A stretch of DNA of 64,000 nucleotides from Balneolaceae bacterium (GCA_020832415.1 JAFIES010000115.1:1189-65188); one strand, 5' to 3'; shown: positions 38,812 through 58,927, counted from the stretch's first letter. Translations and numbers: made by a program. The notes: generated by a model not told the origin, from the sequence alone.

Positions 38812-40752
38812 ATGGGTGTAGAAACAGTAAAACTGGCAGAAAGCAAAGAACAGGTTCAGGAGTTTATCAAATACCTGCTAAAGGATATCCGGGCGATGGA
38901 AAAGATGCTTTCGGAAGATTATTTCGAGACAGATACCATTCGCATCGGGGCCGAACAGGAACTTTGCCTGGTTGATAAATATGCAAAGCCGGCGCCTATC
39001 TCTATTGAACTGCTTGAAGTACTGAATGATGAAGCCTTTACGACCGAACTTGCCCGCTTCAACCTTGAAACCAATCTTGACCCCCTTGAATTTAAGGGAA
39101 AATGCCTGTCTCAGCTCGAAGCCAATATTCTCAATCAGCTTGATAAAGCCCGCGAAGCGATAAAGCAATTTGAAGGAGATGTTGTTTTGACCGGTGTATT
39201 ACCAACCATCAGGAAATCAGATCTGGATATTGAAAATCTTACACCACTGCCCCGATACAGGGCTTTGTGCGATGCCATCAATAAACTTCGGGGCGATGAA
39301 TACGACCTGCGTATCCAGGGTATGGACGAGTTACTGATGCGTTTTGATACACCACTTTTAGAAGCGTGTAATACCGGGTTTCAGGTTCATCTTCAGGTAA
39401 ACCCCGATGAATTTGTGAATAAATACAACCTTGCCCAGGCGATAACAGGACCCGTACTGGCTGGGGCTGTAAATTCCCCCCTGTTATTTGGAAAGCGCTT
39501 ATGGGCCGAGACACGAATTGCACTGTTCCATCAGTCTGTGGATACGCGCCAGGTTGGCGACCACCTCCGCGATAACAGCCCCCGTGTAACGTTTGGCAAC
39601 GAGTGGCTGAAGAACAGCATTCTTGAAATTTATAAAGAGGATATAGCCCGGTACAGAGTGATGCTCAGCTCAAACCTTACCGAGGATGTAGATGAAATTC
39701 TTGAATCCGGCGGGGTGCCAAAACTCATGGCATTGCAAGTGCATAATGGAACGGTGTATCGATGGAACAGGCCTTGTTATGGAATCAGCAACGGTAAGCC
39801 GCACTTAAGGATTGAGAATCGAATTTTTCCGTCTGGGCCAACCGTAACCGACGAAATTGCAAACGCATCGTTCTGGCTTGGATTGTTAAATGGTATGGAC
39901 AGTGAATATCCAGATATCTCAAAAGTTCTCGATTTTGATGATGCCAGAATGAATTTTATCGCTGCGTCAAAACTTGGCCTGGATACAAAATTTAAATGGG
40001 TTAGGGATAAACGATATTCAGCAGTTGAGCTTATCACTAAAGAGTTGCTGCCACTGGCAAGGGAAGGGCTTAAGAATGCCAATGTGTATGAAGGTGATAT
40101 CACCAGTTATCTCGATGTGATTGAAGAGCGAACGGAGTCTGCACAAACAGGTAGCTACTGGATGGTAAAATCGTACAATTCTTTAAGTAAAGTTGTGAGT
40201 AAAGAACAGGCTCTTACCGCTGTTACCAATGCAATGATAAAAAATCAGCGAAAAGGAGAGCCTGTGCACAAATGGGGCCTTGCTAAACCGGATGACATGG
40301 AGATGTGGCAGCCATCATCCCTGCTGGTGGAAGAATTTATGACAACAGACCTGTTTACTGTTCAAAAAGATGATATTATCGAGCTTGTAGCTAATCTCTT
40401 TGAGTGGAGACGAATACGGTATGTGCCGGTGGAAGACGACAGTAAACACCTTGTTGGACTGATAACCATGCGGATGATTTTCAGGGAGTTTAATGATATT
40501 CTACACAACAGGGGCTCTTCGAGCAAAGCAGTTGAAGATATTATGATCAAAAACCCTATCACGATTCACCCCGAGGCTTCAATCCTTGAGGCGATAGAGA
40601 TTATGGACAGTCAGAAAATAGGATGCTTGCCTGTAGTAAAAAATAACCGGCTTGTTGGTATTATTACTGAGCAAAATTATATGACAATTACATCAAGACT
40701 GCTGAAACAGATGCATAAAAATAACGGAAAAAAGGACCTCAGCGATAGCTGA
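38812..40752 (+). CDS. GCS2-family (YbdK/EgtA-like) carboxylate-amine ligase fused to a C-terminal CBS pair
   Basis: The GCS2 blocks are RIGAEQELCLVD, ACNTGFQVHLQV, WAETRIALFHQS and PHLRIENR. Two CBS repeats sit at the C-terminus (FMTTDLFTVQKDD..., IMIKNPITIHPEASILEAIEIMDSQKIGCLPVV). Confidence 0.85.
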   Translation: MGVETVKLAESKEQVQEFIKYLLKDIRAMEKMLSEDYFETDTIRIGAEQELCLVDKYAKPAPISIELLEVLNDEAFTTELARFNLETNLDPLEFKGKCLSQLEANILNQLDKAREAIKQFEGDVVLTGVLPTIRKSDLDIENLTPLPRYRALCDAINKLRGDEYDLRIQGMDELLMRFDTPLLEACNTGFQVHLQVNPDEFVNKYNLAQAITGPVLAGAVNSPLLFGKRLWAETRIALFHQSVDTRQVGDHLRDNSPRVTFGNEWLKNSILEIYKEDIARYRVMLSSNLTEDVDEILESGGVPKLMALQVHNGTVYRWNRPCYGISNGKPHLRIENRIFPSGPTVTDEIANASFWLGLLNGMDSEYPDISKVLDFDDARMNFIAASKLGLDTKFKWVRDKRYSAVELITKELLPLAREGLKNANVYEGDITSYLDVIEERTESAQTGSYWMVKSYNSLSKVVSKEQALTAVTNAMIKNQRKGEPVHKWGLAKPDDMEMWQPSSLLVEEFMTTDLFTVQKDDIIELVANLFEWRRIRYVPVEDDSKHLVGLITMRMIFREFNDILHNRGSSSKAVEDIMIKNPITIHPEASILEAIEIMDSQKIGCLPVVKNNRLVGIITEQNYMTITSRLLKQMHKNNGKKDLSDS

Positions 40753-40769
40753 ACATATTTAAAATACAG

Positions 40770-42677
40770 GTGCTTAATATGGGGCAGCAAAAGCTTTCAA
40801 TTGCAAAAGATCCTGAATCGAGGAAGAAGTTTCTTCTACATTTGCTGCATGATGTAGAAGCAATCGAAAAAATGCTCGAAGATGGACAGTTTGAATCAGG
40901 TATTAGCCGAATCGGTGCTGAGCAAGAGTTTTGTCTTGTGGATAAACATTTCAGGCCGTCTTTAAACTCGCTTCAGGTATTGGAGAAGATATCAGATCCC
41001 CATTTTACACCTGAACTTGCCAGGTATAACCTCGAAATAAATCTGGATCCGCTAAAATTCAGCGATGACTGTTTCTCGGTGATGGAAACGAGTTTGCGAA
41101 ATTTGCTCAATAAAGCAGAGTTGGCGGCCGGTTCATTCGAAGAGAAAATTGTACTGACTGGTATCCTGCCTACCATTGATTACAGAGCAGTTCAGATGGA
41201 GTATATGACTCCAAAACAGCGCTATGAAGCACTTGCCAATATCATTGCTGAATTGAGGGGTGAAGATTTTGAATTGAATATTACGGGTGTGGATGAGCTT
41301 ATTTTGAAACATCACAATATTCTTTTTGAGGCGTGTAATACCAGCTTTCAATGCCACTTACAGATAGAGCCGGATGAATTTCCTGATATGTATAACTGGG
41401 CGCAGATGTTATCAGGTCCGGTGCTGTCGGTAGCGGCAAATTCGCCGTTATTGATTGGAAAACAGCTATGGGCTGAAACACGGATACCCCTTTTTCAGCA
41501 AAGTATTGATACACGTGGTAAGGGGTATCACCTGAGGGAGCGTGCGCAGCGGGTAACGTTCGGTAACAGATGGATAGAAAATGTAGGAGATGTATATAAA
41601 AACGACATAGCCAGGCATACCCTTCTCTTTATGACAGATATCAAAAAAGATTCTCTGGATGTTTTAAAGGAGGGGAAAATACCAAATCTCAGGGCATTAC
41701 AGCTCCATAACGGAACCATTTATAAATGGAACCGACCTTGCTATGGCGTTACAAATGGTGTGCCGCATCTGCGCATTGAAAACAGATATTTGCCATCCGG
41801 TCCAACTGTAGATGATGAAATCGCCAATCTTGCACTTTGGTGTGGTTTAATGAGCAGTATGCCTGATAAGTTCAGGGGAAATTGGAGTAATATGCCGTTT
41901 GAAGAGGCTAAAGAGAATTTTCACAAAGCGGCAATGTGGGGTATCCAAAGTGGAATGGTGTGGGATGGGCGCCTCACTTCTGCACGAAATCTTATTCTGG
42001 ATCAGTTGCTGCCCATGGCACAAGAGGGGCTCGAATCAAAGAACATTAACTCGGGCGATATCGATAAATATCTTTCGATTATTGAACAGCGGGCTGCCCG
42101 CCATGCTACCGGCTCAAGATGGATCGTAAACAGTTATCGCAAACTAAAAAAAGAACTGGCAAGAGATGAAGCCGCAATTGCTCTCACGGTAATCATGCAC
42201 AACAGAAGATTATCGGGCTCGCCTGTTCATGAATGGGAGCCTGCAACTCTTGAGGAGGCCGAAAAACTTGAACTTCACTATGAATTTGTGAGCAATGTAA
42301 TGACCACAGACCTGATTACAGTGAATGAAAACGATTTGGCTTACCTTGTGCTCAAAATAATGGATTGGAGAAACATACGGCATTTGCCTGTTGAAGATAG
42401 CCGTGGATATCTGAAAGGAATTATTACAAAAAAGAGATTGGTTCAGTATCTTAGTGATCCCAAAAAGAAAGACCTCGCAACAGCCGGAGATGTGATGGAG
42501 AAAGATCCTGTAACCATTGGCCCAAACGAGGATATAAAATTTGCCATGCTCTTGATGCTTGATAAAGGGGTAAGCAGTTTGCCTGTGGTAGAACACGGAG
42601 AACTGATTGGAATAATAACAGACAAGGATACAAGAGACGTGTGGAATAAGATGAAGAAAAAAACTGATGCAGATTAA
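40770..42677 (+). CDS. Second GCS2-family carboxylate-amine ligase fused to a CBS pair, paralog of 38812-40752
   Basis: It carries the same blocks (RIGAEQEFCLVD, ACNTSFQCHLQI, WAETRIPLFQQS, PHLRIENR) plus two CBS repeats. The gap from the upstream paralog is 17 nt. Confidence 0.85.
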   Translation: MLNMGQQKLSIAKDPESRKKFLLHLLHDVEAIEKMLEDGQFESGISRIGAEQEFCLVDKHFRPSLNSLQVLEKISDPHFTPELARYNLEINLDPLKFSDDCFSVMETSLRNLLNKAELAAGSFEEKIVLTGILPTIDYRAVQMEYMTPKQRYEALANIIAELRGEDFELNITGVDELILKHHNILFEACNTSFQCHLQIEPDEFPDMYNWAQMLSGPVLSVAANSPLLIGKQLWAETRIPLFQQSIDTRGKGYHLRERAQRVTFGNRWIENVGDVYKNDIARHTLLFMTDIKKDSLDVLKEGKIPNLRALQLHNGTIYKWNRPCYGVTNGVPHLRIENRYLPSGPTVDDEIANLALWCGLMSSMPDKFRGNWSNMPFEEAKENFHKAAMWGIQSGMVWDGRLTSARNLILDQLLPMAQEGLESKNINSGDIDKYLSIIEQRAARHATGSRWIVNSYRKLKKELARDEAAIALTVIMHNRRLSGSPVHEWEPATLEEAEKLELHYEFVSNVMTTDLITVNENDLAYLVLKIMDWRNIRHLPVEDSRGYLKGIITKKRLVQYLSDPKKKDLATAGDVMEKDPVTIGPNEDIKFAMLLMLDKGVSSLPVVEHGELIGIITDKDTRDVWNKMKKKTDAD

Positions 42678-44676: not shown

Positions 44677-45057
44677 ATGAAAATCAGATCATTATTATTG
44701 AGCATACTGCTCGTAGTTGCTTTTTCAAATCTATCTTATGCATCATCAGAAGAGTCGCCACTGGTGGGCTCCTGGGAGTTTAACGTTACCGGAGCTCCAT
44801 GGGAGTACAGCCGGGGTTTGATTATTGTTGAACCGGGAGAGGATGGCGAGCTGTCGGGAAAAGTTGAATTTAGTACGGGGAGAGTGGTTCAAATAGCTTC
44901 AATTCTCGTTGAAGACGAAAGTGTGGTTTTTGAGGTAGTTGTGGATGGGTATGATGTGAAATCAGACCTGCAACTTTCCGGAGATGACCTGCAGGGAGTT
45001 GTACAGACGATTGAAGGAAACATGAACTTTTCTGCAAAAAGAGCAGTTTCAGAATAG
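44677..45057 (+). CDS. Hypothetical small secreted protein
   Basis: It has a signal peptide (LLVVAFSNLSYASS) and a beta-rich 100-aa body. I recognise no family. Confidence 0.55.
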   Translation: MKIRSLLLSILLVVAFSNLSYASSEESPLVGSWEFNVTGAPWEYSRGLIIVEPGEDGELSGKVEFSTGRVVQIASILVEDESVVFEVVVDGYDVKSDLQLSGDDLQGVVQTIEGNMNFSAKRAVSE

Positions 45058-45102
45058 TTTTTACCCCTCATTTGCTGGGAAAAAATCGGGTGTTGAGATT
45101 GA

Positions 45103-45585
45103 GTGTATTTAGTGTGTATATTAATACACACTAAATATTCAAGAAACTCATTACTATTGGCTGAGAAAAGTATCACAGCATCCATCCTTTGGGACAAATT
45201 TGGAATTGGGGTTTCAGGCATTTGCGCAATACACTGCCTGTTTTTTCCCGCAATAATCTCACTGCTTCCCGTTTTTACTTCCATATCGTTTTTACACGAA
45301 TGGGCACATCCTCTATTTCTCATTTTACTGTTACCGATTGTCTACTACGCCGCAAAGAGAAGCCATTTCGACAGGTTTATTACATCTCTGTTAATTGTCG
45401 GGTTTCTTTTTGTGCTTGCCGGATGGCTTTTGGGCCATTTTTGGCTGGGTTTGGTTGTAGAAACTTCTCTTACTGTAATCGGGAGTTTTATTCTTATATC
45501 AGGTCACTGGTTGAATTATAAACATCACAGATCGTGTAAGGTTAAATCTCACAATCACCACCCGATTGAAATGCAAAAAAAATAA
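45103..45585 (+). CDS. MerC-like integral membrane protein
   Basis: DKFGIGVSGICAIHCLFFPAIISLLP resembles the MerC N-terminal Cys-containing TM helix. There are four TM segments and a His-rich tail (KHHRSCKVKSHNHHP). The first 18 track codons translate the palindrome, so the real start is probably the TTG at 45157. Confidence 0.68.
   Translation: MYLVCILIHTKYSRNSLLLAEKSITASILWDKFGIGVSGICAIHCLFFPAIISLLPVFTSISFLHEWAHPLFLILLLPIVYYAAKRSHFDRFITSLLIVGFLFVLAGWLLGHFWLGLVVETSLTVIGSFILISGHWLNYKHHRSCKVKSHNHHPIEMQKK
45106..45137. promoter_or_regulatory. 32-bp palindrome, candidate operator in front of the MerC-like gene and metal island
   Basis: TATTTAGTGTGTAT-ATTA-ATACACACTAAATA has perfect 14-bp arms and a 4-bp spacer. 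It lies just upstream of the likely TTG start (45157) of the MerC-like gene. Confidence 0.5.
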
Positions 45586-45589
45586 CATC

Positions 45590-45919
45590 ATGAAACGTCT
45601 CAATTTTACTCTCGATAAATCCACTGTTGAACTGCTCAATGATCTGTCAGAAAAGTACTATGAGGGGAATAAATCGCAGACGGTTCGTGCCGCGCTCGAA
45701 AGTCTTGCGGCAAGGCAGGGTCATGATGGCTGGGTAATCAGCGGGTACACACCGCTTCGAATTGATCATGATGCGAATTGCCACACATGTGGTACAGATT
45801 ACAATGAGGGCAACATTCTTTTCCGCCCTGTTTTTGAGAGAGGTAACAGTCCGGCAGCAATTCAGCAGATACCCAGTGAAGAGTGGGTAGAGTGCTCAAG
45901 TTGTGTGGAAAAACAGTGA
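45590..45919 (+). CDS. Ribbon-helix-helix (CopG/Arc-like) protein with a C-terminal CxxC...CxxC zinc-ribbon-like domain
   Basis: MKRLNFTLDKSTVELLNDLSEKYYEGNKSQTVRAALESLA follows an RHH pattern. The Cys pairs are CHTCG and CSSC. The ATG at 45590 lies 4 nt after the MerC-like stop, so the track start at 45566 is less likely. Confidence 0.6.
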   Translation: MKRLNFTLDKSTVELLNDLSEKYYEGNKSQTVRAALESLAARQGHDGWVISGYTPLRIDHDANCHTCGTDYNEGNILFRPVFERGNSPAAIQQIPSEEWVECSSCVEKQ

Positions 45920-45942
45920 TACTGAAACACTTTTTTTGAATT

Positions 45943-46293
45943 TTGAAAAAATTTCAAACGAACATATCAACCTATAAAAAGTTTCCGGCTCTTTTAGCTA
46001 CGCTCGGCTTACTGTTTATTGTGCTGCATCCTCTCGAGCATGCGGCAGAAACGTTTTTATTTGAAAGTGATACAGTACACCATGAATTACCTGCAGACAA
46101 AAAGAATGATACAACAGAATCAGACTGTATCGAATGTGTTCTGGTTACTTCAATGGTTACCGATTGTGAACCAACATCGGTAATTCTTCAAATCAAAAGT
46201 GATTATATCTCAGCTACAGAATTCAGTTTTTTGAAATTAAAGCAGGCTGATTTTGGCTTTTCTCTTCGCGCTCCCCCGCATTTATACGTTTAA
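45943..46293 (+). CDS. Small membrane-anchored CxxC protein ending in an RAPP motif, paralog of 49537-49887
   Basis: It has one N-terminal TM helix, His residues (HPLEHAAE, VHHE), an acidic stretch, then CIEC and C-terminal ...FSLRAPPHLYV. The start codon is TTG. Confidence 0.55.
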   Translation: MKKFQTNISTYKKFPALLATLGLLFIVLHPLEHAAETFLFESDTVHHELPADKKNDTTESDCIECVLVTSMVTDCEPTSVILQIKSDYISATEFSFLKLKQADFGFSLRAPPHLYV

Positions 46294-46387
46294 ATCACTA
46301 AGCACATCCAAAACCGGATTCTTAAACGAAATTCCGGTAAACGTATAAACGCCCCGAGGCTTTCAGGCTTGGGATAATCTTATATAA

Positions 46388-47443
46388 ATGATTAAAAATA
46401 AGATACCTATAACTATTTTATGTGGTTTTTTGGGATCGGGTAAGACCACTCTTTTGAACCACATTCTTGAAAATAATAAAGGTAAAAAAGTTGCTGTAAT
46501 TATTAATGAATTTGGCGAAGTGAACGTCGATTCCAAACTGGTTAAACATACATCTGAAAAGGTGATTGAGCTCTCAAACGGCTGCATCTGCTGCACGCTG
46601 CGCGGTGATTTGATTGAGGGAGTTCACGATTTGATACAGGAGCATAACATCGATCATATCGTGATTGAATCGACAGGAATCGGGGAGCCGGTACCCATTG
46701 CACAGGCGTTTTACGTTCAGCCTGAACTGCTGGCGCTTGAACCGGGCATCCCAAACGTTCAGCATCGTGTATTTGTGGATTCAATCATTACTGTGGTAGA
46801 TAGCTCCCAGTTTATGGAAATGTATCAGCGAAACAGCACGGTAGAGGGTGACGACTTCAACCGCGGTTACGGTCAGCTCCTGGCCGAACAGATTGAGGGC
46901 GCCGATATTCTTATTCTGAACAAAACCGACCAGGCATCAGTAACTCAAATCGATACGCTGAAAGAGCTTTTCTCAACGATGAACCCGAGAGCAGTTATGT
47001 TTGAATCAGAATATGGCCAAGTTGATCCGCAGGAAATCCTTAACACAGGAATTTTTGATATACAAACTGCTGAGCAGTCGTCACTTTGGGTTGCAGAGCT
47101 GGAGAAGGAACCGGGTTCTGAGTCAGAAGAGTATGGAATTGAAACTTTCGTCTATACAACAACCAATCGATTTGAAGAGACAAAACTGATAGATACACTA
47201 AACAGTGGTCTGCCCGAAAATATTTTTCGGTCGAAGGGATTGATTGCTATTGAGGGTTCTGATGCTGCATTTCTATGGAGTCAGGCAGGCAAGTTTTTGC
47301 AATTCGAACAGATAGGGCGCTTTCAGGATGCTGAGAATGCACGAAGTGAAATCGTATTCATCGGCCAAAACCTGAACAGAGAGTGGATTAAAGATAAACT
47401 TGATAACGCTGTAACCTCTACTTCGTTCGCGAGAACGAAATAA
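46388..47443 (+). CDS. COG0523-family G3E GTPase (CobW/ZigA/YeiR-like metallochaperone)
   Basis: It has a Walker A motif ([12 protein letters not shown]), the metal-binding motif [20 protein letters not shown] and a CobW_C-like C domain. Confidence 0.9.
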
Positions 47444-47539
47444 ACATAAGTCACTAAGCATGGGAGGGTGATGCCTTCCATGCTCTTTTACACATCCAGA
47501 AAATCATTTGTAAAACCTTTAACAATAGAACAGATATTT

Positions 47540-48310
47540 ATGAATGCTGAACATGCAATCACCCGAAAAAAAGCACTCAAATTCATGGCGCTTGGATCCT
47601 TCACATCCATTTTGGCTCCGGCGGTTTTTACTACATCCTGCGCGGCGAATAACCGGACCGGCGGATATCAATCCTATGATGAGATCTTCAATGAGGTCTA
47701 CCCATTTTCGCTTGCTGATCTTCCCTACAGTTATGATGCGCTTGAGACGGCAATCGACGCCAATACGATGGAGATCCATCATGGGCGTCACCATCAGGGA
47801 TATATCAATAATCTGAATAACGCTCCTGAAGATCATGCAGACCTGCAGGAGATGACGCTTATCGATCTAGTTGCCGGTTTGAACAATTTGCCCGAGGAAG
47901 TGAGAACGGCCGTAAGAAATCACGGTGGCGGGCACCTGAACCACGCCATGTTCTGGAATACGATGAGTGCAGAGGGTGGTTCACCCAATGGTGCGCTCAA
48001 GGAGGCCATTGATCGTGATTTTGGAAGTGAAGACTCTCTGAAAGAGGAGTTCTCCTCAGCTGCGGGCGGTGTGTTTGGAAGCGGCTGGGCATGGCTGGCA
48101 TCCGATAGCAACGGAGGCCTCCAAGTAGTGCAAACCCCAAACCAGGACAATCCGCTTACTGATGGGCTGACACCGCTTGTAGGAGTAGATGTTTGGGAAC
48201 ACGCCTATTATCTCAACTATCAAAACCGGCGCGGAGATTATGTGAATGCTTTTTGGGACCTGATTTACTGGGATAAGGTGGCGGAAATTTATGATGAATC
48301 ACAGAGCTGA
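47540..48310 (+). CDS. Fe/Mn-family superoxide dismutase with an N-terminal export (Tat-like/lipoprotein-like) leader
   Basis: The catalytic core is LPYSYDALETAIDANTMEIHHGRHHQGYINNLN ... DVWEHAYYLNYQNRRGDYV. It is preceded by about 50 extra residues (MNAEHAITRKKALKFMALGSFTSILAPAVFTTSCAAN). The track start at 47468 looks too far upstream. Confidence 0.9.
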   Translation: MNAEHAITRKKALKFMALGSFTSILAPAVFTTSCAANNRTGGYQSYDEIFNEVYPFSLADLPYSYDALETAIDANTMEIHHGRHHQGYINNLNNAPEDHADLQEMTLIDLVAGLNNLPEEVRTAVRNHGGGHLNHAMFWNTMSAEGGSPNGALKEAIDRDFGSEDSLKEEFSSAAGGVFGSGWAWLASDSNGGLQVVQTPNQDNPLTDGLTPLVGVDVWEHAYYLNYQNRRGDYVNAFWDLIYWDKVAEIYDESQS

Positions 48311-49491
48311 TGAATCCAACAGACTCTGTACTAGACTGGATCATTGTGGGAGGGGGTATACACGGTACTTACCTCTCCAATGTTCTCATTAAAAAGCGGG
48401 TTACAGGCAGAGATAATCTTCGGGTAATTGATCCACACGATGAGGCTTTGACCTCCTGGAAAAGAGTTACAGAGAATGTAGGTATGGAATACCTGCGATC
48501 GCCCAAAGTGCATCACCTTGATTTGGAGCCGTTTTCACTTAAACACTACTCGCAGTGCACCGACTGTTCAGAGAGACAATTTATAGCTCCTAACGACAGG
48601 CCATCTTTAAGCCTGTTCAATCACCATGCCGAATCGGTTATCAGAAGAAATGGTCTTGAGAAACTAAGAGTTAAGGAATGGGCTGTCAGGATTGATCCGG
48701 GAACAGCATATCACACGGTTCATACTGAATATGATTGCCTTAAGGCAAAAAACCTGATACTTGCTACCGGCAGTGGCAGTGCTGAATGGCCTCTGTGGGC
48801 AATTAATGCAATGAATGAGGGAGCATTGATACAACATGTTCTGGATCCAAAGTACGATGCTAATCAACTACCCACAGAAGCTGAGATTCTGGTAGTTGGC
48901 GGGGGTATGTCAGCTGTTCAAACCGCCCTCTCTATCTCAACTGAAAAAAGGCGAGTCACACTTGTATCGCCACATTCGCTTCGAATGAATAACTATGACT
49001 CTGATCCGGGCTGGATGGGACCGAAATATCTCAGAAAATTTCGTTCGGTTTCTTGTTTTACTAAACGACGAAAGCTCATCGAGCAGGCACGAAATCGAGG
49101 TACTGTGACCTCCGATCTTTACCATGCATTCAGAAATCAGGTTAAAAAAGTAAGTTGTGTGCGGGTGGTTGACAGTATAATTAGCTGCACAGTATTGACT
49201 GAAGGGCTGAATTTACTACAGTTACAAAGTGGAGAAAAGCTGGCCTGTAATGCGATAGTTTTGGCAACCGGCTACCGAAACAGACGCCCCGGAGGAGAGA
49301 TGATCAGCAGGTTGATTGATCAATATAATCTGAGGTGTTCTGCTTGCGGATATCCTGTCCCCCAATCAAACCTTGAATGGTTCGACCGGATCTATTTAAG
49401 CGGACCGCTTGCAGAGCTGGAAGTGGGTCCTGCTGCACAAAATGTTATTGGAGCCCGTATGGCAGCGGAAAAAATTTTAAATATGTATTGA
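48310..49491 (+). CDS. FAD/NAD(P)-binding two-dinucleotide-fold oxidoreductase (class-B flavin-monooxygenase-like)
   Basis: It has GxGxxG twice (IIVGGGIHG, LVVGGGMSA) and an ATG-type motif (IVLATGYRN). Its start overlaps the SOD stop (ATGA at 48307-48310). Confidence 0.78.
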   Translation: MNPTDSVLDWIIVGGGIHGTYLSNVLIKKRVTGRDNLRVIDPHDEALTSWKRVTENVGMEYLRSPKVHHLDLEPFSLKHYSQCTDCSERQFIAPNDRPSLSLFNHHAESVIRRNGLEKLRVKEWAVRIDPGTAYHTVHTEYDCLKAKNLILATGSGSAEWPLWAINAMNEGALIQHVLDPKYDANQLPTEAEILVVGGGMSAVQTALSISTEKRRVTLVSPHSLRMNNYDSDPGWMGPKYLRKFRSVSCFTKRRKLIEQARNRGTVTSDLYHAFRNQVKKVSCVRVVDSIISCTVLTEGLNLLQLQSGEKLACNAIVLATGYRNRRPGGEMISRLIDQYNLRCSACGYPVPQSNLEWFDRIYLSGPLAELEVGPAAQNVIGARMAAEKILNMY

Positions 49492-49536
49492 AAAAATAAT
49501 TTTTAGCCAAAGCTAAAAAATTTATTATCTTCATGT

Positions 49537-49887
49537 GTGTTTGGTTTGGAAACTAAAATAATGATCAATTGGATGAATAAAGTATGGACCGGACTGATTC
49601 TCCTACTGGCTTTGGAGATGGCATTGGTCTATCCAGCTCACATTATCATTGATCATTCAGGGTTGTTTGGCCATCATCATCACCATGATCATCCATATGA
49701 AGATTACCCTGAAGATGATCTATGTCTGTTTTGTGTGAATATGGGTGGGATGGAGCATTCAGAGGTTTTGATAACTCAACCTGCCGTCAGTATTGCAGAT
49801 GATTTTTCGGATTTTATTCAATCATTTAAAACAAGAAATGAACTTTCGATTCAAACTCGTGCACCGCCTTTCGGTTTAAATAAATAA
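49537..49887 (+). CDS. Small membrane-anchored His-rich CxxC protein ending in an RAPP motif, paralog of 45943-46293
   Basis: It has a TM helix, then GHHHHHDHPYEDYPEDD, CLFC and C-terminal ...IQTRAPPFGLNK. It lies 51 nt upstream of a TonB-dependent receptor. The true start may be the Met at 49561. Confidence 0.6.
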   Translation: MFGLETKIMINWMNKVWTGLILLLALEMALVYPAHIIIDHSGLFGHHHHHDHPYEDYPEDDLCLFCVNMGGMEHSEVLITQPAVSIADDFSDFIQSFKTRNELSIQTRAPPFGLNK

Positions 49888-49938
49888 AGAATCAAGAAGA
49901 CAAATCAGAGTTAACAAATAAGTTTATCAGGTAGAATA

Positions 49939-52161
49939 ATGAAAAGATATATAAAACTGGCAGTTGTGTTGCTGCTTTTTGGGCTGGGAGTAAATGAATC
50001 CCGCGCCACCAGCACAAATGAAACCCTCAAGGGAGAGATAAAAGATGCTGTAACCGGTGAAGCCATCCCGGGAGCTACTGTTTTTATAGAAGAGCTTGAA
50101 AGAGGAGCTGCGGCTGATATTAACGGTCAATTTGAATTTAGAAATGTAGCACCGGGCAGCTATACATTAAATGTGTCTTCTATTGGATTAAGATCGGTTC
50201 AAATAACCGTTGATCATCCGGGGGAAGGTTTTATTACAATACAATTGACACCGGTTTTACTCAGAGGAGAAGAGGTAGTTGTAACAGGATCTCCGCTGGG
50301 TCGCAATATCCGTTACCAACCGGCACAGGCGATGAACCGGGAAGCTTTGCAACAAAAAGCGGCACCCAGCCTGGGAGAAATTCTGGATGGGAGTCCGGGT
50401 GTTTCGGCCCGTTCGTTTGGTTCGGCTCCATCGCGTCCCGTTATTCGGGGCCTTGATGGCGATCGGGTTTTGGTACTGCAGAACGGTGAACGGATGGGAG
50501 ATCTATCCGGTACAGCAGTCGATCATGCGGTATCTCTGGATCCGCTTTCGATGGATCGCGTGGAAGTGATCCGTGGACCGGCAAGCTTGTTGTATGGTTC
50601 CAGTGCAATTGGCGGAGTAGTAAACTTATTTAGTAATGATATGCCGAGAGACTGGGACAAAGGTTCATCAGGCAGTCTGGCAACACACGTGGCTACTGTA
50701 AATGATATGGGCGCAGGTTTGGCGCGTTATCAATATGGATCTGATCATTTTGCTGCCACAGGGCGTTTTATTTATCGTGATGGGGGTGATCTGCGTACTC
50801 CTGAGGGCAGACTGCCCGATACAGCGATCAATAATCTGAGTTACGGCACGGGAGTAGCTTATCGTTCCGGTCGATTTCAAACAGGACTTTCCTTTTCAGG
50901 TATGGATTATACATATGGCTTGCCGGAAGCGATCGATGATCCAAACGAAAATGTAGAAATTCGAATGAATCGAACCAATATTCAAAGTGTTTCTACCCTT
51001 GAGATGGGCCGCTTTTTTGAGCTGGCAGAACTACGGCTGCAATACAGCGATTATAAGCATGATGAAATAGAAACCGAGATAAACCCGGACGGAACTGTAG
51101 ATGAAGACCTGGAGATCTCTTTCGATCAGCAAACAATCAGCAGTTCGCTGGTGCTTCGGCACAGGCCTGTAGGACTATTTGAAGGAGCTATTGGATTCAG
51201 CTTTAACTATTCGCAGCTGGATGTTGGAGGGGACGAGGCACTTACGCCGAATGCAGAAAGCTATTTTTTGGCTGCATATTTATATGAAGAAATCAGCCTT
51301 AATCGTTTCTTAACCATGAAAGCCGGTACAAGGGTTGAATTCAAGGAGTTGTTTGTAAAAACCAACGAGCTTTTTTCGGATGCAGAACAGTTCGAAGATC
51401 GCTCTGACCTGATATTTGCCGGTGCAGTTGGATTGAATTTTAGTCCGAACAGGAACTGGGAGTCGGGTATCCAGCTTGCAAGGGCATTCCGTACTCCGGG
51501 GGTTGAAGAACTCTATTCAGATGCTCCTCATCTTGCTGCCGGTTCATATGATATTGGCGATCCCACACTCGACAATGAGATCAGCCTGGGTTCAGACTTT
51601 TTTATTCGATATAGTAACAATAGGGTGAGAAGTGAACTCTCGTTATTCGCAAATCGCATCAACAACTTCATTAACTTTTCGCCAACCGGTGAAATTCATG
51701 AGCCATCCGGTCTGCCCATTTTTGTTTATGGTTCAACTGATGCATTCTTAACCGGGTTTGAATTTCAAACAGATGTTGCGATGAGTGAACAGCTGCGTGT
51801 TGGAGTTGGCTTTGATTATGTGCGTGGTATAGAACGGTCGGGCGATCAAAACGATCTTCCATTCATTCCCCCTTTCAGAACTCATTTATCTGCAATGTAC
51901 GATAGTGGCAGCTGGTGGGGAGGTCCCCGGATGCGTATTGCAACCACACAAAACCGTGTTGCACCCAATGAAGATGTGACCGATGGATATATACTGGTCG
52001 GAATGGATGCCGGGTATCGTTTTGGGCATGGAGTTTCATTCACTCTCCGGGTGGACAATCTTCTAAATGAAAGCTATCGCGATCATCTGAGCCGTGTAGA
52101 AGACCGCAATAACCCGATGCCGGCGCGTAATATTAATGCGATGTTGAGGTGGGAGTTTTAG
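49939..52161 (+). CDS. TonB-dependent outer-membrane receptor with a CarboxypepD_reg N domain
   Basis: It has a signal peptide and LKGEIKDAVTGEAIPGATVFI. The plug block is DRVEVIRGPASLLYGSSAIGGVVNL. The barrel ends in ...NAMLRWEF. Confidence 0.92.
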   Translation: MKRYIKLAVVLLLFGLGVNESRATSTNETLKGEIKDAVTGEAIPGATVFIEELERGAAADINGQFEFRNVAPGSYTLNVSSIGLRSVQITVDHPGEGFITIQLTPVLLRGEEVVVTGSPLGRNIRYQPAQAMNREALQQKAAPSLGEILDGSPGVSARSFGSAPSRPVIRGLDGDRVLVLQNGERMGDLSGTAVDHAVSLDPLSMDRVEVIRGPASLLYGSSAIGGVVNLFSNDMPRDWDKGSSGSLATHVATVNDMGAGLARYQYGSDHFAATGRFIYRDGGDLRTPEGRLPDTAINNLSYGTGVAYRSGRFQTGLSFSGMDYTYGLPEAIDDPNENVEIRMNRTNIQSVSTLEMGRFFELAELRLQYSDYKHDEIETEINPDGTVDEDLEISFDQQTISSSLVLRHRPVGLFEGAIGFSFNYSQLDVGGDEALTPNAESYFLAAYLYEEISLNRFLTMKAGTRVEFKELFVKTNELFSDAEQFEDRSDLIFAGAVGLNFSPNRNWESGIQLARAFRTPGVEELYSDAPHLAAGSYDIGDPTLDNEISLGSDFFIRYSNNRVRSELSLFANRINNFINFSPTGEIHEPSGLPIFVYGSTDAFLTGFEFQTDVAMSEQLRVGVGFDYVRGIERSGDQNDLPFIPPFRTHLSAMYDSGSWWGGPRMRIATTQNRVAPNEDVTDGYILVGMDAGYRFGHGVSFTLRVDNLLNESYRDHLSRVEDRNNPMPARNINAMLRWEF

Positions 52162-52230
52162 ATTGGCATGATAATTATCTGAGATCCAAGTCAATTCATC
52201 TAATTTGATGGTGTTAAAGATTCAAGCATT

Positions 52231-52530
52231 TTGAACTTATCGACACTCATCGATGTAGAGTTTTATAGTAAATCTCTACATATTACATCCATGAAATGCT
52301 CCACCGGAAAAAACCAATACTCCACAAAGTCTATTGCGGAAGCATCGCTGATCGATATTCACATCCATCGCAATTTTCAACCGGATCAGGGGCCGCAAAA
52401 TGTTTATCAATGTGAGATTTGTGAAGAATGGCATTTCACCAGTAAATCACCCGGCAGGAATGAGCGCTTACAGGAGATGATCGACTCCGGAGAGATGCAG
52501 CGAATGCAGAGGGCAAGGCGATGGGAATGA
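52231..52530 (+). CDS. Hypothetical small protein with a C...CxxC...WH zinc-ribbon-like pattern
   Basis: The sequence is MKCSTGKNQY...VYQCEICEEWHFTSK with a basic tail. The likely start is the internal Met at 52291. I recognise no family. Confidence 0.45.
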   Translation: MNLSTLIDVEFYSKSLHITSMKCSTGKNQYSTKSIAEASLIDIHIHRNFQPDQGPQNVYQCEICEEWHFTSKSPGRNERLQEMIDSGEMQRMQRARRWE

Positions 52531-52738
52531 TTTTTAATTGTCAAGCCATACTTGATAGTGGTCAGGTTTCGATATGATATGTGGCCCGCCCGCGATATGA
52601 CAATGCATATGATGGAGCTGGTGTGCGCAACGCCCGACAGGCTTAACCTGATGATGAAAGGCGATCTGGTGTTTCATCATTGGATGTGATAGAATGCAAT
52701 TTTTTCAGTTCAAGGAACTCATTTAGCGAATTAATTCA

Positions 52739-54313: not shown

Positions 54314-54421
54314 GTTGAGTTTCTGAATCAATTGCCCATCAAGTCATCGGATGAGTCCATGCTGAAACAACAAGGGAGGGGAAAATAAGTGAAGTTCTTC
54401 GGAAAAACTCATCCGATGACT
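54314..54421 (+). repeat. Long-stem hairpin repeat, copy 1
   Basis: The 15-bp perfect stem is AGTCATCGGATGAGT (54342-54356) / ACTCATCCGATGACT (54407-54421) around a 50-nt loop. The flank gttgagttt...tcaattgcccatca is shared with copy 3. Confidence 0.85.
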
Positions 54422-54459: not shown

Positions 54460-54538
54460 AGTCATCGGATGAGTCCATGCCGAGACAACGAAGGCGGATT
54501 AGTATGGGAGATTTTTCAAATAAACTCATCCGATGATT
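54460..54538 (+). repeat. Long-stem hairpin repeat, copy 2 (diverged loop)
   Basis: It uses the same stem arms (54460-54474 / 54524-54538, one mismatch). The loop starts with the conserved ccatgc.ga.acaac. Confidence 0.8.
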
Positions 54539-54567: not shown

Positions 54568-55257
54568 TTATGGAATCCCTCTCCGAAACTGTTCTCTGAG
54601 TTCTACAATATAGATCGCCAATTGATCACGCACATCCTTGCCCCTGTTGTAAAACTCATTGAACGTTTTCTCGTCGATGAACTCCTTTTTTTTGATCTCC
54701 TGTAGGGCTGTCAGCATTCGGTTTGCGGCAAAGAGCCCGCGTTTACAGTTGGCTATGTTTCCGCCGATGCTTTCCAGATCGAACCCAAAACCGAAGCCAC
54801 CAGCAATTTTTGCCGGTGGAATAATCACTGAACGCGTAAAAGTATCTACTGATTCATCATCAATTTCATTGAGTTCATTATCAATCAGTTTCATGGCATC
54901 AAGCGTATATTGGTAGGCATCCTGATAGATCGGTAAATTTTCGAAACTGTCGAAATCATCAGGCTTAAAATCGACAGCCTTTTTCCACTCATCGCCCTCT
55001 TCATACTCTTCGATCGAAAATTCTTCCAGAAATTTATTCTCATCGAGAAAGCTATCAAGTGTATGCAACCATCCCATCTCAATGGCTATTAGTTTATCGC
55101 GATCAGGGTGGTCTTCATATATTTTATAAAGATGTAAATATTGGTCTGTACGCCGGTCAGACTCTTTCATGAACTCTTCCCAACGATGTTCGTCCCAGAT
55201 TTCAGGTTCGTTTTCTTCTTCGTTATCAATAGGTTCATTCACATCACTCATGATCAC
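54568..55257 (-). CDS. Hypothetical highly acidic protein (229 aa)
   Basis: It is a clean ORF with an Asp/Glu-rich N half and GGFGFGFDLESIGGNIANCKRG in the C half. I recognise no family. The hairpin repeats bracket it. Confidence 0.6.
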   Translation of the reverse strand: MIMSDVNEPIDNEEENEPEIWDEHRWEEFMKESDRRTDQYLHLYKIYEDHPDRDKLIAIEMGWLHTLDSFLDENKFLEEFSIEEYEEGDEWKKAVDFKPDDFDSFENLPIYQDAYQYTLDAMKLIDNELNEIDDESVDTFTRSVIIPPAKIAGGFGFGFDLESIGGNIANCKRGLFAANRMLTALQEIKKKEFIDEKTFNEFYNRGKDVRDQLAIYIVELREQFRRGIP

Positions 55258-55307: not shown

Positions 55308-55416
55308 GTTGAGTTTTAATGAGTCAATTGCCCATCAAGTCATCGGATGAGTCCATGTTGAAACAACAAGGGAGGGTAAAATATGTGAGGTTCTTCGGAA
55401 AACTCATCCGATGACT
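55308..55416 (+). repeat. Long-stem hairpin repeat, copy 3
   Basis: The stem is 55338-55352 / 55402-55416, a perfect 15 bp. The loop and 5' flank are nearly identical to copy 1. Confidence 0.85.
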
Positions 55417-55484
55417 GCCAGCCCCAAGAATCAACCTGATTTACAAGTTGACATCCATTTTTTTTCGGCTTACCCTTACACAGC

Positions 55485-55695
55485 AACAGGTTCCCGTTAG
55501 CAATGCTCTCGGGATGAAAAGGGAATCCGGTGACTTGGCCTCAGAAGTTTATTCCAGGCCGGGAAGTCCGGAACTATCCCCGTAGCTGTAATCTCCATAT
55601 AACTTTCAGCAATTCTTTGCCACTGTCCACACGATATGACGGGAAGGCTGCTGAAGGGGAGTAAGTCAGAAGACCTGCCTGTATGCTGTAAATTC
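55485..55695 (+). promoter_or_regulatory. Cobalamin (B12) riboswitch
   Basis: The conserved core elements occur in order: AAAAGGGAATCCGGTGA (55517-55533), TCCGGAACTATCCCCGTAGCTGTAA, GCCACTG (55619-55625), GGGAAGGC (55641-55648) and the B12 box AGTCAGAAGACCTGCC (55664-55679). It lies about 120 nt upstream of a TonB-dependent receptor. Confidence 0.85.
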
Positions 55696-55815
55696 AGGCT
55701 TTCGGAGGAAAAGCCGGGAATGTGCTCTCTTTGTATCCATTAAAGGTATATCGATTGCTGCTCCCACCATTTTTTCTCGAAAGCTCATCGGTTAACTTTA
55801 AAATTTCATAAAACC

Positions 55816-57711
55816 ATGAGCAAAATTCTCATTTCTTTATTTGGGGCACTACTTTTTGCCCCGGCAGTTCTGGCGCAACCGGCTCCGGCTGCAACAGATA
55901 CACTCAATCTCGATCAGATTGTTATTACGGCATCTAAAATTCCACTATCACAGCGTGAAACTACCAAGCCGGTTATCATCATCAACCGTGCAGAAATTGA
56001 AAGAAACAGCGGACGTGATATTTCGCAGATTCTCAATCAGCAGAGTGGTATTCGTGTGAATGATGCATACGGAGCACCATCAAACGGCCGTATTCTCTAC
56101 ATGCAGGGTGCCGCGGCACAGAATACTCTCATCCTGGTGGATGGTTTCCCAATCAGTGACCCATCCGGAGTTGGCGGATTGTTCGATCTAAGGCTGCTTC
56201 CTACAAATAACCTGGAGCGAATCGAGGTATTAAAAGGAAGCCAGTCCACACTTTATGGAACGGATGCCATTGCAGGTGTAGTCAACTTGATAACCCGCAG
56301 TGGGGGCGAAGAGCCGATTAGTGGAACCGGACGCCTGAGTTATGGCTCATACAATACACTCAATGGTAATTTAGGCGTGAATGGCACTGCCGGCAACAGG
56401 GTGAGATACTCGCTCCACTACAACCGTGAGACAAGCGATGGGTTTAGTGCGGCCAGAAACCCTGGAACACCTGAAACTTTTGGTGATGATGGATATGAAC
56501 TCAATGCATTTTACGGAAAAACAGATTTCTTGATTACTGAGAATCTGACAGTATCGCCATTTTTGAATTATTCAAGCAATAAAGGTGATTATGATGCCGG
56601 TTCCTTCGAGGATGCTGATAATTTCTACACACTTGAAATGCTCAATCCCGGTCTTCAGGCTCAATATGCAAATGGCTCATTTCGCCTGAATGCCGGTTAC
56701 AATTATACGAGAACAGCCCGATCTTTTGAGTCTCAGTTTGGAATGAATGAATTTGAAGGGCGTTTTCACAATGCAGATATATTCGGTAATTATCAGTTTG
56801 GTGACTACGTGCAGATGCTTGCGGGGTTCAATTTTCAGGAGTTTTCCATTCCCGGCAATGAAGATATCGCAGAACGCGATGCAAGCATTATAAGTCCCTA
56901 TTCAACACTTTACCTTAAAAATCTTCGCGGATTCAGTGCTGAACTGGGCTACCGCCTCAACAACCATTCTGAATATGGAAACAACTCCACGTTCAGTTTT
57001 TCACCATCATTTAATGTTGTTGAGAATGTGAAGGTTTATGGATCAATCAGTACCGGGTTTAAAGCACCAACTCTGGATGAACTCTTCGGGCCGTTTGGTG
57101 CCAATCCGGAACTTGATCCTCAGAGAAGTCTCTATGTCAATGCCGGTATAGAAGCGTACCTGATCGATCAGTCTTTAAAATTATCCGCTCAGTATTTCAA
57201 CCGGGAGATTGATGACCTTATCATATTCTCTACTCAGGGGTATATCAACCGCGACAAACAGAATGATTACGGAATCGAGCTCACGGCAGACTGGATTGTT
57301 AGCAGCAGGGTACAAACAGGATTTTGGTATAATTTTGTTGATGGAGAAATTACCACCATTGGTGACGATGGAAGCCAATTAACACAGGGAAACCTGATCA
57401 GAAGGCCAAAACACAGCACGGGAATACAGGCAGGTGTTGCAGTAACCGATCAGTTTTATATTCGTGTTGATGGGGAGTATAACGGGGAAAGACAGGATCT
57501 TTTCTTCAATCCGGCGAATAATTTTGCACAGGAAGATATTACTCTGGATGCTTACACACTGGTAAATCTGTATGCTGAGTATAAGCTCAAAAATAATCGT
57601 TTTACCCTGTTTGGCGATGTAAAAAATCTGTTCAATACAGACTTTACTGAGGTATATGGATTTAATACCACGGGAATTGCCATCAAAGGCGGACTGCGAT
57701 TTTCAATCTAA
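55816..57711 (+). CDS. btuB: TonB-dependent vitamin B12/corrinoid receptor
   Basis: It has a signal peptide, a TonB-box-like DQIVITASK and the plug block ERIEVLKGSQSTLYGTDAIAGVVNLITR. The size (631 aa) fits, and a B12 riboswitch lies directly upstream. Confidence 0.88.
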   Translation: MSKILISLFGALLFAPAVLAQPAPAATDTLNLDQIVITASKIPLSQRETTKPVIIINRAEIERNSGRDISQILNQQSGIRVNDAYGAPSNGRILYMQGAAAQNTLILVDGFPISDPSGVGGLFDLRLLPTNNLERIEVLKGSQSTLYGTDAIAGVVNLITRSGGEEPISGTGRLSYGSYNTLNGNLGVNGTAGNRVRYSLHYNRETSDGFSAARNPGTPETFGDDGYELNAFYGKTDFLITENLTVSPFLNYSSNKGDYDAGSFEDADNFYTLEMLNPGLQAQYANGSFRLNAGYNYTRTARSFESQFGMNEFEGRFHNADIFGNYQFGDYVQMLAGFNFQEFSIPGNEDIAERDASIISPYSTLYLKNLRGFSAELGYRLNNHSEYGNNSTFSFSPSFNVVENVKVYGSISTGFKAPTLDELFGPFGANPELDPQRSLYVNAGIEAYLIDQSLKLSAQYFNREIDDLIIFSTQGYINRDKQNDYGIELTADWIVSSRVQTGFWYNFVDGEITTIGDDGSQLTQGNLIRRPKHSTGIQAGVAVTDQFYIRVDGEYNGERQDLFFNPANNFAQEDITLDAYTLVNLYAEYKLKNNRFTLFGDVKNLFNTDFTEVYGFNTTGIAIKGGLRFSI

Positions 57712-58480: not shown

Positions 58481-58927
58481 TTACATCAGTCTTTGATCAA
58501 ATGTGAAAGGCAGCTTTTTACGGATCTCAACCCGCTTAAAATCGGGGTGGTTCGGGTTGATAAGAATATTATATTCATCCCGAATGATAGATGATGGTAC
58601 CCGAAGCAGGAGAGAAGATGTACTCGCCGCCCAGCTATCACCCTTGGCCCGACATATCTGGTAATTGGATATGTGATGCCAGTTGTACGGTAATTCATCC
58701 GAACGGATAATCTTCAAAGAGCTGCTATCCGGAATTGATATTTCAATTAATTGAAATTGGTGATTCAGTCCTTCACCTGATCGGTGAACCAGATTTTCAA
58801 GGCAAGCCAGTGCCCGTGATTCTGCAGTGTAGAGAACATGAACTCCTTTTGAGTTCCATCTTGCAGGGTACCCCGATCCTGAAAGAGAATCTGCCCATTT
58901 GGAAAGTGTTATGCGGTAAACAATCAT
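58481..58927 (-). CDS. RES-domain toxin (NAD+-degrading MbcT/ParT-like family)
   Basis: The Arg-Glu-Ser signature is present: YPARWNSKGVHVLYTAESRALACLENLVH ... LLRVPSSII. Its start abuts the upstream antitoxin gene. Confidence 0.88.
   Translation of the reverse strand: MIVYRITLSKWADSLSGSGYPARWNSKGVHVLYTAESRALACLENLVHRSGEGLNHQFQLIEISIPDSSSLKIIRSDELPYNWHHISNYQICRAKGDSWAASTSSLLLRVPSSIIRDEYNILINPNHPDFKRVEIRKKLPFTFDQRLM

Follow-up and report, generated by a model that had tools for sequence, protein, structure and literature searches.

A 64,000-nt stretch of DNA from a Balneolaceae bacterium (GCA_020832415.1 JAFIES010000115.1:1189-65188; here called the window, at its full length) contains between positions 44677 and 52689 a gene cluster that we identify as a real, conserved metal-starvation island of Balneolaceae, with zinc as the probable metal. 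The cluster is best read as a mosaic in which three control units or more are combined: a promoter overlapped by a palindrome, Op1; a small open reading frame (ORF), miniA, followed by an RNA element; and a promoter with a different palindrome, Op2, and a second small ORF, miniB. A first-pass annotation had listed the miniA and miniB products as CxxC...RAPP mini-proteins in a cluster made up largely of uncharacterised small proteins. They are better read as cis-acting RAPP arrest leaders of the CruR/CutF type (PMC9426467), nascent peptides that would sense metal and arrest the ribosome rather than serve as structural metal proteins, and on the evidence of sequence we consider this explanation, taken as a whole, reasonably probable. 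The features on which the argument turns are:

45093–45122, plus strand: sigma-70-like promoter from a consensus scan, −35 TTGAGA, 18-nt spacer, −10 TATATT; the −10 lies inside the Op1 palindrome
45106–45137, unstranded: candidate operator Op1, a 32-bp perfect palindrome with conserved core 45111–45132, AGTGTGTATATTAATACACACT
45157–45585, plus strand: MerC-like inner-membrane protein, start uncertain (TTG 45157), with CAIHC...FFPA in the first helix and a His-rich tail
45590–45919, plus strand: 109-aa NikR-like ribbon-helix-helix (RHH) protein, a candidate metal-sensing repressor whose C-terminal domain is of Cys4/His type
45943–46293, plus strand: miniA, 116 aa; membrane anchor, HPxxH, CIEC (residues 62–65), 43-residue spacer, RAPP (46267–46278), HLYV, stop
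46281–46373, plus strand: three-helix RNA element; P1 46281–46291/46339–46349, P2 46314–46318/46333–46337, P3 46353–46358/46368–46373
46388–47443, plus strand: COG0523 GTPase metallochaperone with GCICC
47463–47489, plus strand: terminator-like hairpin and T tail between the COG0523 and superoxide dismutase (SOD) genes, a consensus match only
47540–48310, plus strand: Fe/Mn SOD with a signal, TRKKALKF, resembling those of the twin-arginine translocation (Tat) pathway and a lipobox, TTSC; Pfam Sod_Fe_N and Sod_Fe_C
48310–49491, plus strand: cytoplasmic FAD/NAD(P) flavoprotein, function unassigned; Pyr_redox_2 (1.7e-14) and NAD_binding_9
49490–49529, unstranded: candidate operator Op2, core 49502–49517, TTTAGCCAAAGCTAAA, with symmetric AT-rich flanks
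49561–49887, plus strand: miniB, His-rich; membrane anchor, HHHHH run, CLFC, 41-residue spacer, RAPP (49858–49869), FGLNK, stop
49939–52161, plus strand: ZnuD-like TonB-dependent receptor with Plug, barrel and CarboxypepD_reg domains

Arrest leaders of this kind have been described in Proteobacteria. CruR (Bp2923) of Bordetella pertussis is a DUF2946 upstream ORF that controls the TonB-dependent transporter BfrG in response to copper, and is built from an export signal, CxxC, 45 ± 2 residues and RAPP three residues before the stop codon (PMC9426467). CutF of Rhodobacter capsulatus, the DUF2946 leader of cutFOG, acts by stalling (PMC9973294; bioRxiv 10.1101/2025.02.05.636593). Ribosomes arrested by RAPP have the third codon of the motif in the P site and the fourth in the A site, and leader ORFs with RAPP are reported to be widespread 5′ of TonB-dependent receptors (PMC12992588, PMC10951233). 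The main text of the CruR, CutF and RAPP papers makes no mention of COG0523 as a leader target.

MiniA and miniB are just 26% identical to each other and share one common design of anchor, HPxxH, His-rich stretch, CxxC, spacer and RAPP. Word-indexed searches returned 7 and 3 relatives of the mini-proteins, a full HMMER scan of 1.84 billion representatives returned 27, and a motif scan of related loci recovered 28 leader ORFs and one spurious match, with CxxC present in all 28. Across the 28 sequences only the CxxC (C62 and C65) and R[AG]PP are invariant; the stretch between them varies freely in sequence, with a spacing of 41, 42 or 43 residues in every locus, and every member reaches its stop codon 0–7 residues after R[AG]PP (4–5 in miniA and miniB). 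Inspection of the alignment of miniA, miniB and 26 relatives reveals a basic N terminus followed by a hydrophobic segment of 15–20 residues. R[AG]PP occurs twice among the 45 genes of the window (18,161 residues), both times in the mini-proteins, and 19 of its 20 occurrences in 289,000 residues from related loci fall within 10 residues of the C terminus of proteins of at most 160 aa. The gene directly 3′ of the leader, on the same strand, encodes a COG0523 protein at 13 loci, a TonB-dependent receptor at about 5 and an SOD at 1. The closest family is DUF2946 (PF11162), which 11 of the 28 members match at 12–20.6 bits, against a cut-off of 23.7, in alignments that start near position 40 and run through the last part of the profile to its end.

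Between miniA and the COG0523 gene the spacer (92–99 nt) is predicted to be structured, with a folding z of −3.29. P2 is nested in P1 and P3 follows P1, and the 5′ strand of P1 is formed by the last 3–4 codons and the stop codon of miniA, beginning two codons after RAPP. This architecture is kept with differing sequences in 15 loci (P1 reads, for example, TACGT/ACGTA, TACATGT/ACATGTA or TACCGT/ACGGTA). In a covariance-model alignment of 14 loci, 90% of cells are paired, compared with 73% in shuffles and 26–46% when partners are slid, and 17 of 22 pairs carry compensatory changes. Synonymous sites of close relatives vary in the FSLRAPP codons and are unchanged in the LYV-stop codons that form P1, which points to a constraint at the RNA level. 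With the P site at 46273–46275, an arrested ribosome would cover most of the 5′ strand of P1 (46281–46291). Constrained folding of the 14 loci with the arrest footprint, or with P1 held open, left the accessibility of the COG0523 start codon unchanged; start-codon unmasking of the CutF type is therefore not predicted, and coupling through Rho or some other form of termination is favoured. The miniA stop codon is followed by a conserved single-stranded tract that is rich in C and poor in G and fits a CruR-like Rho mechanism, which we put forward as speculation. Rfam contains no match to the three-helix element or to any other part of the island.

The transcriptional layer of control may be supplied by the RHH protein. 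Its homologues number at least 459, nearly all nameless or 'hypothetical' (one source names one of them a ferredoxin), and none has a Pfam domain. Cysteines 64, 67, 102 and 105 are invariant in the alignment and H45 and H65 are found in at least 90% of sequences; the predicted secondary structure comprises a strand at residues 2–7, helices at 10–24 and 29–42 and then a β-rich domain. A family profile matched Escherichia coli NikR (1q5v; E 4.4e-4, residues 1–75 to 1–80) as its only relative in the PDB below E 0.1, and AlphaFold models reached a predicted local distance difference test score (pLDDT) of 59 from the single sequence and 74.6 with the alignment. A DNA-binding fold is supported by these data. 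The protein is the likely local repressor, and a candidate NikR-like metal sensor that would bind Op1. The earlier suggestion that it could be the local regulator is credible, given that NikR is its only PDB sequence relative and that it is always linked to the palindrome; the same annotation saw no Fur/Zur-family regulator, and none is encoded among the window genes.

Op1 is a perfect 14+4+14 inverted repeat, as first described, with a single copy in the window and 0 expected by chance. Its 22-bp core, AGTGTGTA-N6-TACACACT, lies 25–60 nt 5′ of the MerC/RHH operon in 58 distinct loci, in which a TTG is kept at −35 distance from the palindrome and the palindrome centre (TATATT in the window) falls at −10. 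The promoter consensus scan alone performed at chance level (17 found, 16.8 expected), so that only this conserved −35/−10 register around Op1 carries weight. Op1 adjoins the RHH operon in every gene order, including those in which the RHH gene is divergent from MerC-flavoprotein or precedes MerC, COG0523 and the receptor. A scan of the whole genome collection placed all Balneolaceae matches to Op1 at this locus and nowhere else; matches in other phyla were rejected as chance, with no MerC/RHH genes nearby and a number that fits the ~139 expected for 16 specified bases in 596 Gb. The palindrome is a conserved cis-element and a candidate operator for the RHH protein. Op1 and Op2 were also considered as variants of one site, as both contain TTTAG...CTAAA in the window; the TTTAG flank of Op1 is not kept in relatives, and the two are therefore treated as distinct. 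The Op2 motif TTTAGnCnnGnCTAAA occurs 12–66 nt 5′ of the TonB-dependent receptor gene, or of miniB and the receptor gene, in about 19 loci, and is also found 5′ of other receptor classes.

The MerC-like protein matches Pfam MerC (PF03203) at 4.8e-20 and 72.6 bits, against a cut-off of 27.6, with its Cys pair in the first helix (CAIHC-LFFPA), and its gene is always paired with the RHH gene in the related loci. A mer operon context (MerR, MerA, MerP/MerT) was found neither in the window nor in related loci; the partners are instead the RHH protein, COG0523, the receptor and a non-MerA flavoprotein. The COG0523 protein has cobW (PF02492, 8.4e-55) and CobW_C (PF07683, 1.2e-19) domains, with ZigA as its best NCBIfam family (307.5 bits, cut-off 600) and YjiA as its closest PDB chain (3.8e-32). 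For the receptor, the best NCBIfam family is ZnuD (198 bits, cut-off 950) and the closest PDB chain is also ZnuD (1.8e-40, 142 bits, versus 2.5e-18 and 69 bits for OprC). Given the hairpin 3′ of the COG0523 gene, the SOD and flavoprotein genes may form a separate transcription unit or need read-through. The SOD scores higher as an Mn-SOD (226 bits) than as an Fe-SOD (166 bits), both under the NCBIfam cut-off. A homologue in another locus (L057) carries the signal SRRKALKF, and the SOD is probably an exported lipoprotein that may replace a periplasmic Cu,Zn-SOD, a putative role that we consider a reasonable inference. The flavoprotein has no PDB relative by sequence, is 84% identical to its homologue in a Balneolaceae metagenome-assembled genome and forms an operon with MerC in Rhodothermales. 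Two related loci contain a thioredoxin-reductase-like flavoprotein with a Tat-type signal, DRKSFLKTSALG, beside SOD or ABC (ATP-binding cassette) genes (L001 2327–3400 and L019 16948–17991); an exported pyridine-nucleotide-disulphide oxidoreductase would be unusual.

Conservation of the locus was assessed in 80 loci collected through the RHH protein, which is 99% identical to a homologue in a second Balneolaceae metagenome-assembled genome (L014), and annotated by BLAST with the window proteins. All twelve elements listed in the first-pass annotation lie at or near the coordinates given there, on the plus strand and with small gaps, and Pfam and NCBIfam uphold its calls of MerC, COG0523 with GCICC, Fe/Mn SOD, flavoprotein and TonB-dependent receptor. 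Comparative synteny, proposed there as a check, showed the locus to be syntenic across about 80 Balneolaceae and Rhodothermales genomes. A stable core of ScpB, the optional 126-aa protein, the MerC-like protein and the RHH protein is followed by variable cassettes (miniA-COG0523, TonB-dependent receptor, split MacB-type ABC with DUF3299, ABC-2 system, SOD, flavoprotein and M14 peptidases); in Rhodothermales the arrangement is either a flavoprotein-MerC operon divergent from the RHH gene or RHH-MerC-COG0523-receptor. The cassettes shuffle between genomes, making the locus a conserved but mosaic metal island. The proposal of a co-regulated metal module thus stands as a conserved metal-acquisition and metal-sparing locus, supported by synteny, and fails as a single co-regulated block, the locus having at least three control units and shuffling cassettes. 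One of two loci obtained by querying genome contigs with the flavoprotein (L002, from a spirochaete) was not syntenic and was dropped. The likely true starts are TTG 45157 for the MerC-like protein, ATG 45590 for the RHH protein, ATG 47540 for the SOD and ATG 49561 for miniB; on inspection only, Shine-Dalgarno sequences are mostly not evident before the genes here.

We lean towards a metal-starvation island with three layers of control, namely Op1 with the RHH protein, the RAPP arrest leaders, and Op2. The promoter overlapped by Op1 would drive the MerC-like transporter and the 109-aa RHH protein, and metal-loaded RHH protein would bind Op1 and repress its own operon and possibly genes reached by read-through. 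Nascent miniA and miniB would each present an anchor, a His-rich stretch and CxxC, and 41–43 residues further on RAPP would halt the ribosome while the two prolines of the motif occupy the P and A sites. In the absence of metal the arrest would persist and the downstream gene would stay on; metal bound by the His and Cys residues close to the translocon or the exit of the tunnel would release the arrest and turn the downstream gene off, the polarity of CruR. The predicted targets are COG0523, perhaps with the SOD and flavoprotein, for miniA and the ZnuD-like receptor for miniB. At miniA, the arrested ribosome would sit over the 5′ strand of P1, with coupling to COG0523 more plausibly of the Rho or other termination type, and Op2, 5′ of miniB and the receptor gene, would be the site for a trans-acting regulator. 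Among the cargo, the receptor, MerC-like transporter and COG0523 protein would acquire and allocate metal, and the island may in addition spare metal, should the Fe/Mn SOD exported by the Tat pathway take the place of a Cu,Zn enzyme. For this lineage, ribosome arrest, the response to metal and binding to DNA are predictions drawn from sequence comparison.

Several results weigh against this reading. Neither miniA nor miniB has a Pfam match at E ≤ 0.1, the DUF2946 matches of their relatives are all under threshold, and the spacing of 41–43 residues departs from the 45 ± 2 of DUF2946. Covariation in the RNA element is biased towards structure, the alignment having been fitted to the model. Foldseek with the RHH model returned no significant relative (best E 0.73), so the RHH assignment rests on the NikR profile match, and the C-terminal half has no sequence or fold match to the ACT-like tetramerisation domain of NikR. 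Two further results, the unchanged start-codon accessibility described above and a short miniB–receptor spacer without convincing conserved structure, would also be accommodated if the mini-proteins were genuine exported metal-binding proteins, periplasmic chaperones or receptor partners acting in trans, with RAPP and the RNA helices incidental; their export anchor, and the His-rich stretches and CxxC that are typical metal ligands, fit such a role. A folded domain would not be expected to keep only CxxC, R[AG]PP and the distance between them while some 42 intervening residues are free to vary, however, and R[AG]PP is otherwise avoided and always placed 0–7 residues from the stop codon. The position immediately 5′ of the target gene is fixed, and two members of DUF2946, the closest family, have been shown to act in cis (PMC9426467, PMC9973294). 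We regard action in trans as distinctly unlikely. It is very unlikely that there is no common regulation at all, the cluster being a chance pile-up of metal cassettes at a recombination-prone spot 3′ of ScpB and its palindromes terminators or structural repeats. The SOD, flavoprotein, ABC systems, receptor and M14 peptidases do differ between genomes, a gene remnant near the 3′ end marks a deletion, a terminator-like hairpin follows COG0523, and the stem of Op2 is AT-rich, with T/A-rich sequence after it. But Op1 stands in a fixed register with a conserved −35 TTG, 5′ of an operon rather than 3′ of a gene, even where the RHH gene is divergent; the variable cassettes are all metal-related; and the leader-target and Op2-receptor pairings survive the shuffling.

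With arrest leaders and operators as the preferred explanation, the metal that they would answer to can be narrowed. The first-pass annotation held that zinc, copper or manganese/iron could not be told apart from sequence, a position now too cautious: zinc is the best-supported candidate, and we consider it fairly probable. It is favoured by ZigA and ZnuD as best families and YjiA and ZnuD as closest solved chains, and by the ABC cassettes of relatives (split MacB-type with a long His-rich loop and DUF3299, and an ABC-2/DUF3526 system), which resemble the Zur-regulated ABC systems PA4063-66 and Caulobacter znuGHI (PMC11481552, PMC4176598). The COG0523 protein and receptor score well under the ZigA and ZnuD equivalog cut-offs, and the CxxC, the mostly copper-linked DUF2946 and the Met/His-rich outer-membrane genes beside the L001 copy all fit copper. 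An island that answers copper limitation would have leaders that sense Cu(I) through CxxC, a receptor that imports copper and an Fe/Mn SOD that replaces a Cu,Zn-SOD. CxxC is a classic Cu(I) site, and those DUF2946 members that have been characterised sense copper (PMC9426467, PMC9973294); the C-terminal third of the receptor resembles OprC (2.5e-18) and TonB-copper, MerC-type transporters handle thiophilic metals, and the gene remnant at 52552–52689 and its intact L001 homologue are Met/His-rich. The receptor is nevertheless far closer to ZnuD (142 versus 69 bits, and the best NCBIfam family), COG0523 proteins are tied to Zn, Co or Fe and not to Cu, with ZigA and YjiA nearest here, the ABC cassettes of relatives are of Zur-regulon type with long His-rich loops, and no copper chaperone, multicopper oxidase or P-type ATPase is encoded among the island genes. 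Copper limitation is accordingly an unlikely stimulus. In a separate observation, the MacB-type permease of relatives (L019 9949–11337) has an insertion of about 50 residues made up almost wholly of His, Glu and Asp (HEHHEHEDEHDHEH...).

Three further features border the regulated units:

44677–45057, plus strand: ORF for a secreted 126-aa protein, function unassigned; optional neighbour 5′ of the operator and promoter
52291–52530, plus strand: 79-aa Cys/His small protein, start probably 52291; conserved backbone neighbour
52552–52689, plus strand: gene remnant rather than a gene, from an outer-membrane channel of Phenol_MetA_deg type

The 126-aa protein, which has no Pfam or NCBIfam match, had been counted as the first member of the island. 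It is present, but lies outside the regulated units; about 15 loci have a homologue (33–78% identity) placed between ScpB and MerC, and many others lack one. Similarly, the Cys-ribbon gene, whose 79-aa Cys/His product matches no Pfam or NCBIfam family, exists as described but accompanies the SelO backbone, and in one relative (L003) it lies beyond SelO, distant from the receptor; it is probably not part of the island. The Met/His-rich micro-ORF of the first-pass annotation is not a gene, being 58% identical over 33 aa to a channel gene that is intact in L001 (10186–11199) and matches Pfam PF13557; the remnant marks a deletion relative to L001. In L001 the receptor gene is followed by a further mini-ORF of Cys/APPP type, by genes for a DUF2911 and a Rieske protein, and by the channel gene in intact form. 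A small ORF of a third type, 3′ of the receptor (L001 8397–8783), encodes a membrane anchor and several Cys and closes with IIAPPPKG, a PPP ending like that of CutF; it may be another arrest leader, for the DUF2911, Rieske and channel genes.

Elsewhere in the window, positions 38812–42677 contain two paralogous genes in tandem for GCS2 (glutamate-cysteine-ligase family 2) plus CBS-domain proteins, and after them an AstE/AspA-like gene and ScpB; this set is the left flank of the island and is conserved as such in every close relative. To the right, a repeat of about 83 nt with 87–97% identity and internal inverted repeats (54324–54406, 54460–54497 and 55320–55402) flanks the gene for a 229-aa acidic protein (54568–55257, minus strand), and may be a small mobile or repetitive extragenic palindromic (REP)-like repeat. 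A cobalamin riboswitch at 55471–55697 (plus strand; Rfam RF00174, 104 bits, gathering score 31.5) stands directly 5′ of a second TonB-dependent receptor gene (55816–57711), presumably for a B12 receptor, and a RES-domain toxin paired with an Xre/MbcA/ParS-type antitoxin is encoded at 58481–59377 (minus strand).

We rate miniB and its receptor as a new, distant member of the CruR class. By the same rating, the succession of miniA, RNA element and COG0523, the probable zinc specificity and the Cys4 NikR-like regulator with its operator are novel versions of systems already known. That these combine in a two-tier transcriptional and co-translational metal-starvation circuit, with leaders for zinc or another non-copper metal that are distant from DUF2946, COG0523 controlled through the three-helix RNA and a Cys4 RHH protein in the place of Zur, is a tentative proposal; if true, the circuit is without description in the papers cited here. 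The metal-sensing arrest peptides CruR and CutF are a recent discovery, studied to date only for copper and in Proteobacteria, and the mechanism would then reach a distant phylum and probably zinc, with a cytoplasmic COG0523 metallochaperone as a new target class. The covarying RNA element would provide a way into the unsolved link from ribosome arrest to expression of the gene that follows, at least 459 proteins in an unnamed family would become candidate NikR-like metalloregulators with a defined operator, and the presence of Zur-regulon-type genes without a nearby Zur box in these genomes would be explained.

In gene content the island resembles Zur regulons (ZigA/YeiR/YjiA, ZnuD and PA4063-66/znuGHI), with which it shares COG0523 and a ZnuD-like receptor and, in relatives, the split MacB-type ABC and ABC-2 systems (PMC11481552, PMC4176598). 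The window contains no Zur gene or recognisable Zur box, however; control here apparently falls to leader peptides, the RHH protein and a palindrome of another kind (Op2), and the MerC-like transporter, the exported Fe/Mn SOD and the flavoprotein are additions of the island. Compared by gene content only, the SOD-miniB-receptor segment is like Caulobacter crescentus CC1775-CC1778, in which a DUF2946 small protein, a GntR regulator, sodA and a TonB-dependent receptor are clustered (PMC4176598). The regulator there is GntR, COG0523 is lacking, and expression is lower in a zur mutant, so that CC1775-CC1778 is not a classic Zur-repressed unit (PMC4176598). The RHH protein shares with NikR (1q5v) an N-terminal ribbon-helix-helix, through sequence similarity at E 4.4e-4, a C-terminal domain rich in metal ligands, and a gene beside a metal transporter behind a palindromic operator. 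It is shorter (109 against 133 aa), its C terminus has four invariant Cys plus His and predicted β strands where NikR has an ACT-like domain with a His3Cys Ni site, and the Op1 half-sites are contiguous (8-N6-8), whereas those of the NikR operator are separated by 16 bp.

Among the arrest leaders, CutF resembles the mini-proteins in being an exported nascent peptide that has a Cys motif and, towards its C terminus, an arrest site made of prolines. It resembles miniA in the stem-loop of its spacer, and the switch proposed for CutF is that the stalled ribosome melts this stem-loop; P1 of miniA starts two codons after RAPP. CutF has CxxxC and PPP, however, and metal induces its stalling to turn on a detoxifying oxidase, whereas the targets here are uptake and allocation genes and the opposite polarity is therefore expected; the miniA helices, moreover, leave the start codon uncovered, and no unmasking was predicted when the RNA was folded. 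CruR is the closer parallel to both mini-proteins as a small ORF in which an export signal is followed by an invariant CxxC, a fixed spacer and RAPP a few residues before the stop codon. Like miniB, it lies directly 5′ of a TonB-dependent receptor gene; like miniA, it is followed by a long structured spacer with a C-rich tract; and its polarity, in which metal-free arrest keeps the uptake gene on, is expected here too. The systems differ in their hosts (Balneolaceae at ~43% GC against Proteobacteria at 72% GC), in spacer length (41–43 against 45 residues), in the additional HPxxH and His-rich segments of the mini-proteins and in that the window proteins fall short of the Pfam threshold. Unlike CruR, the island would extend leader control to a cytoplasmic COG0523 GTPase, and its likely metal is zinc rather than copper.

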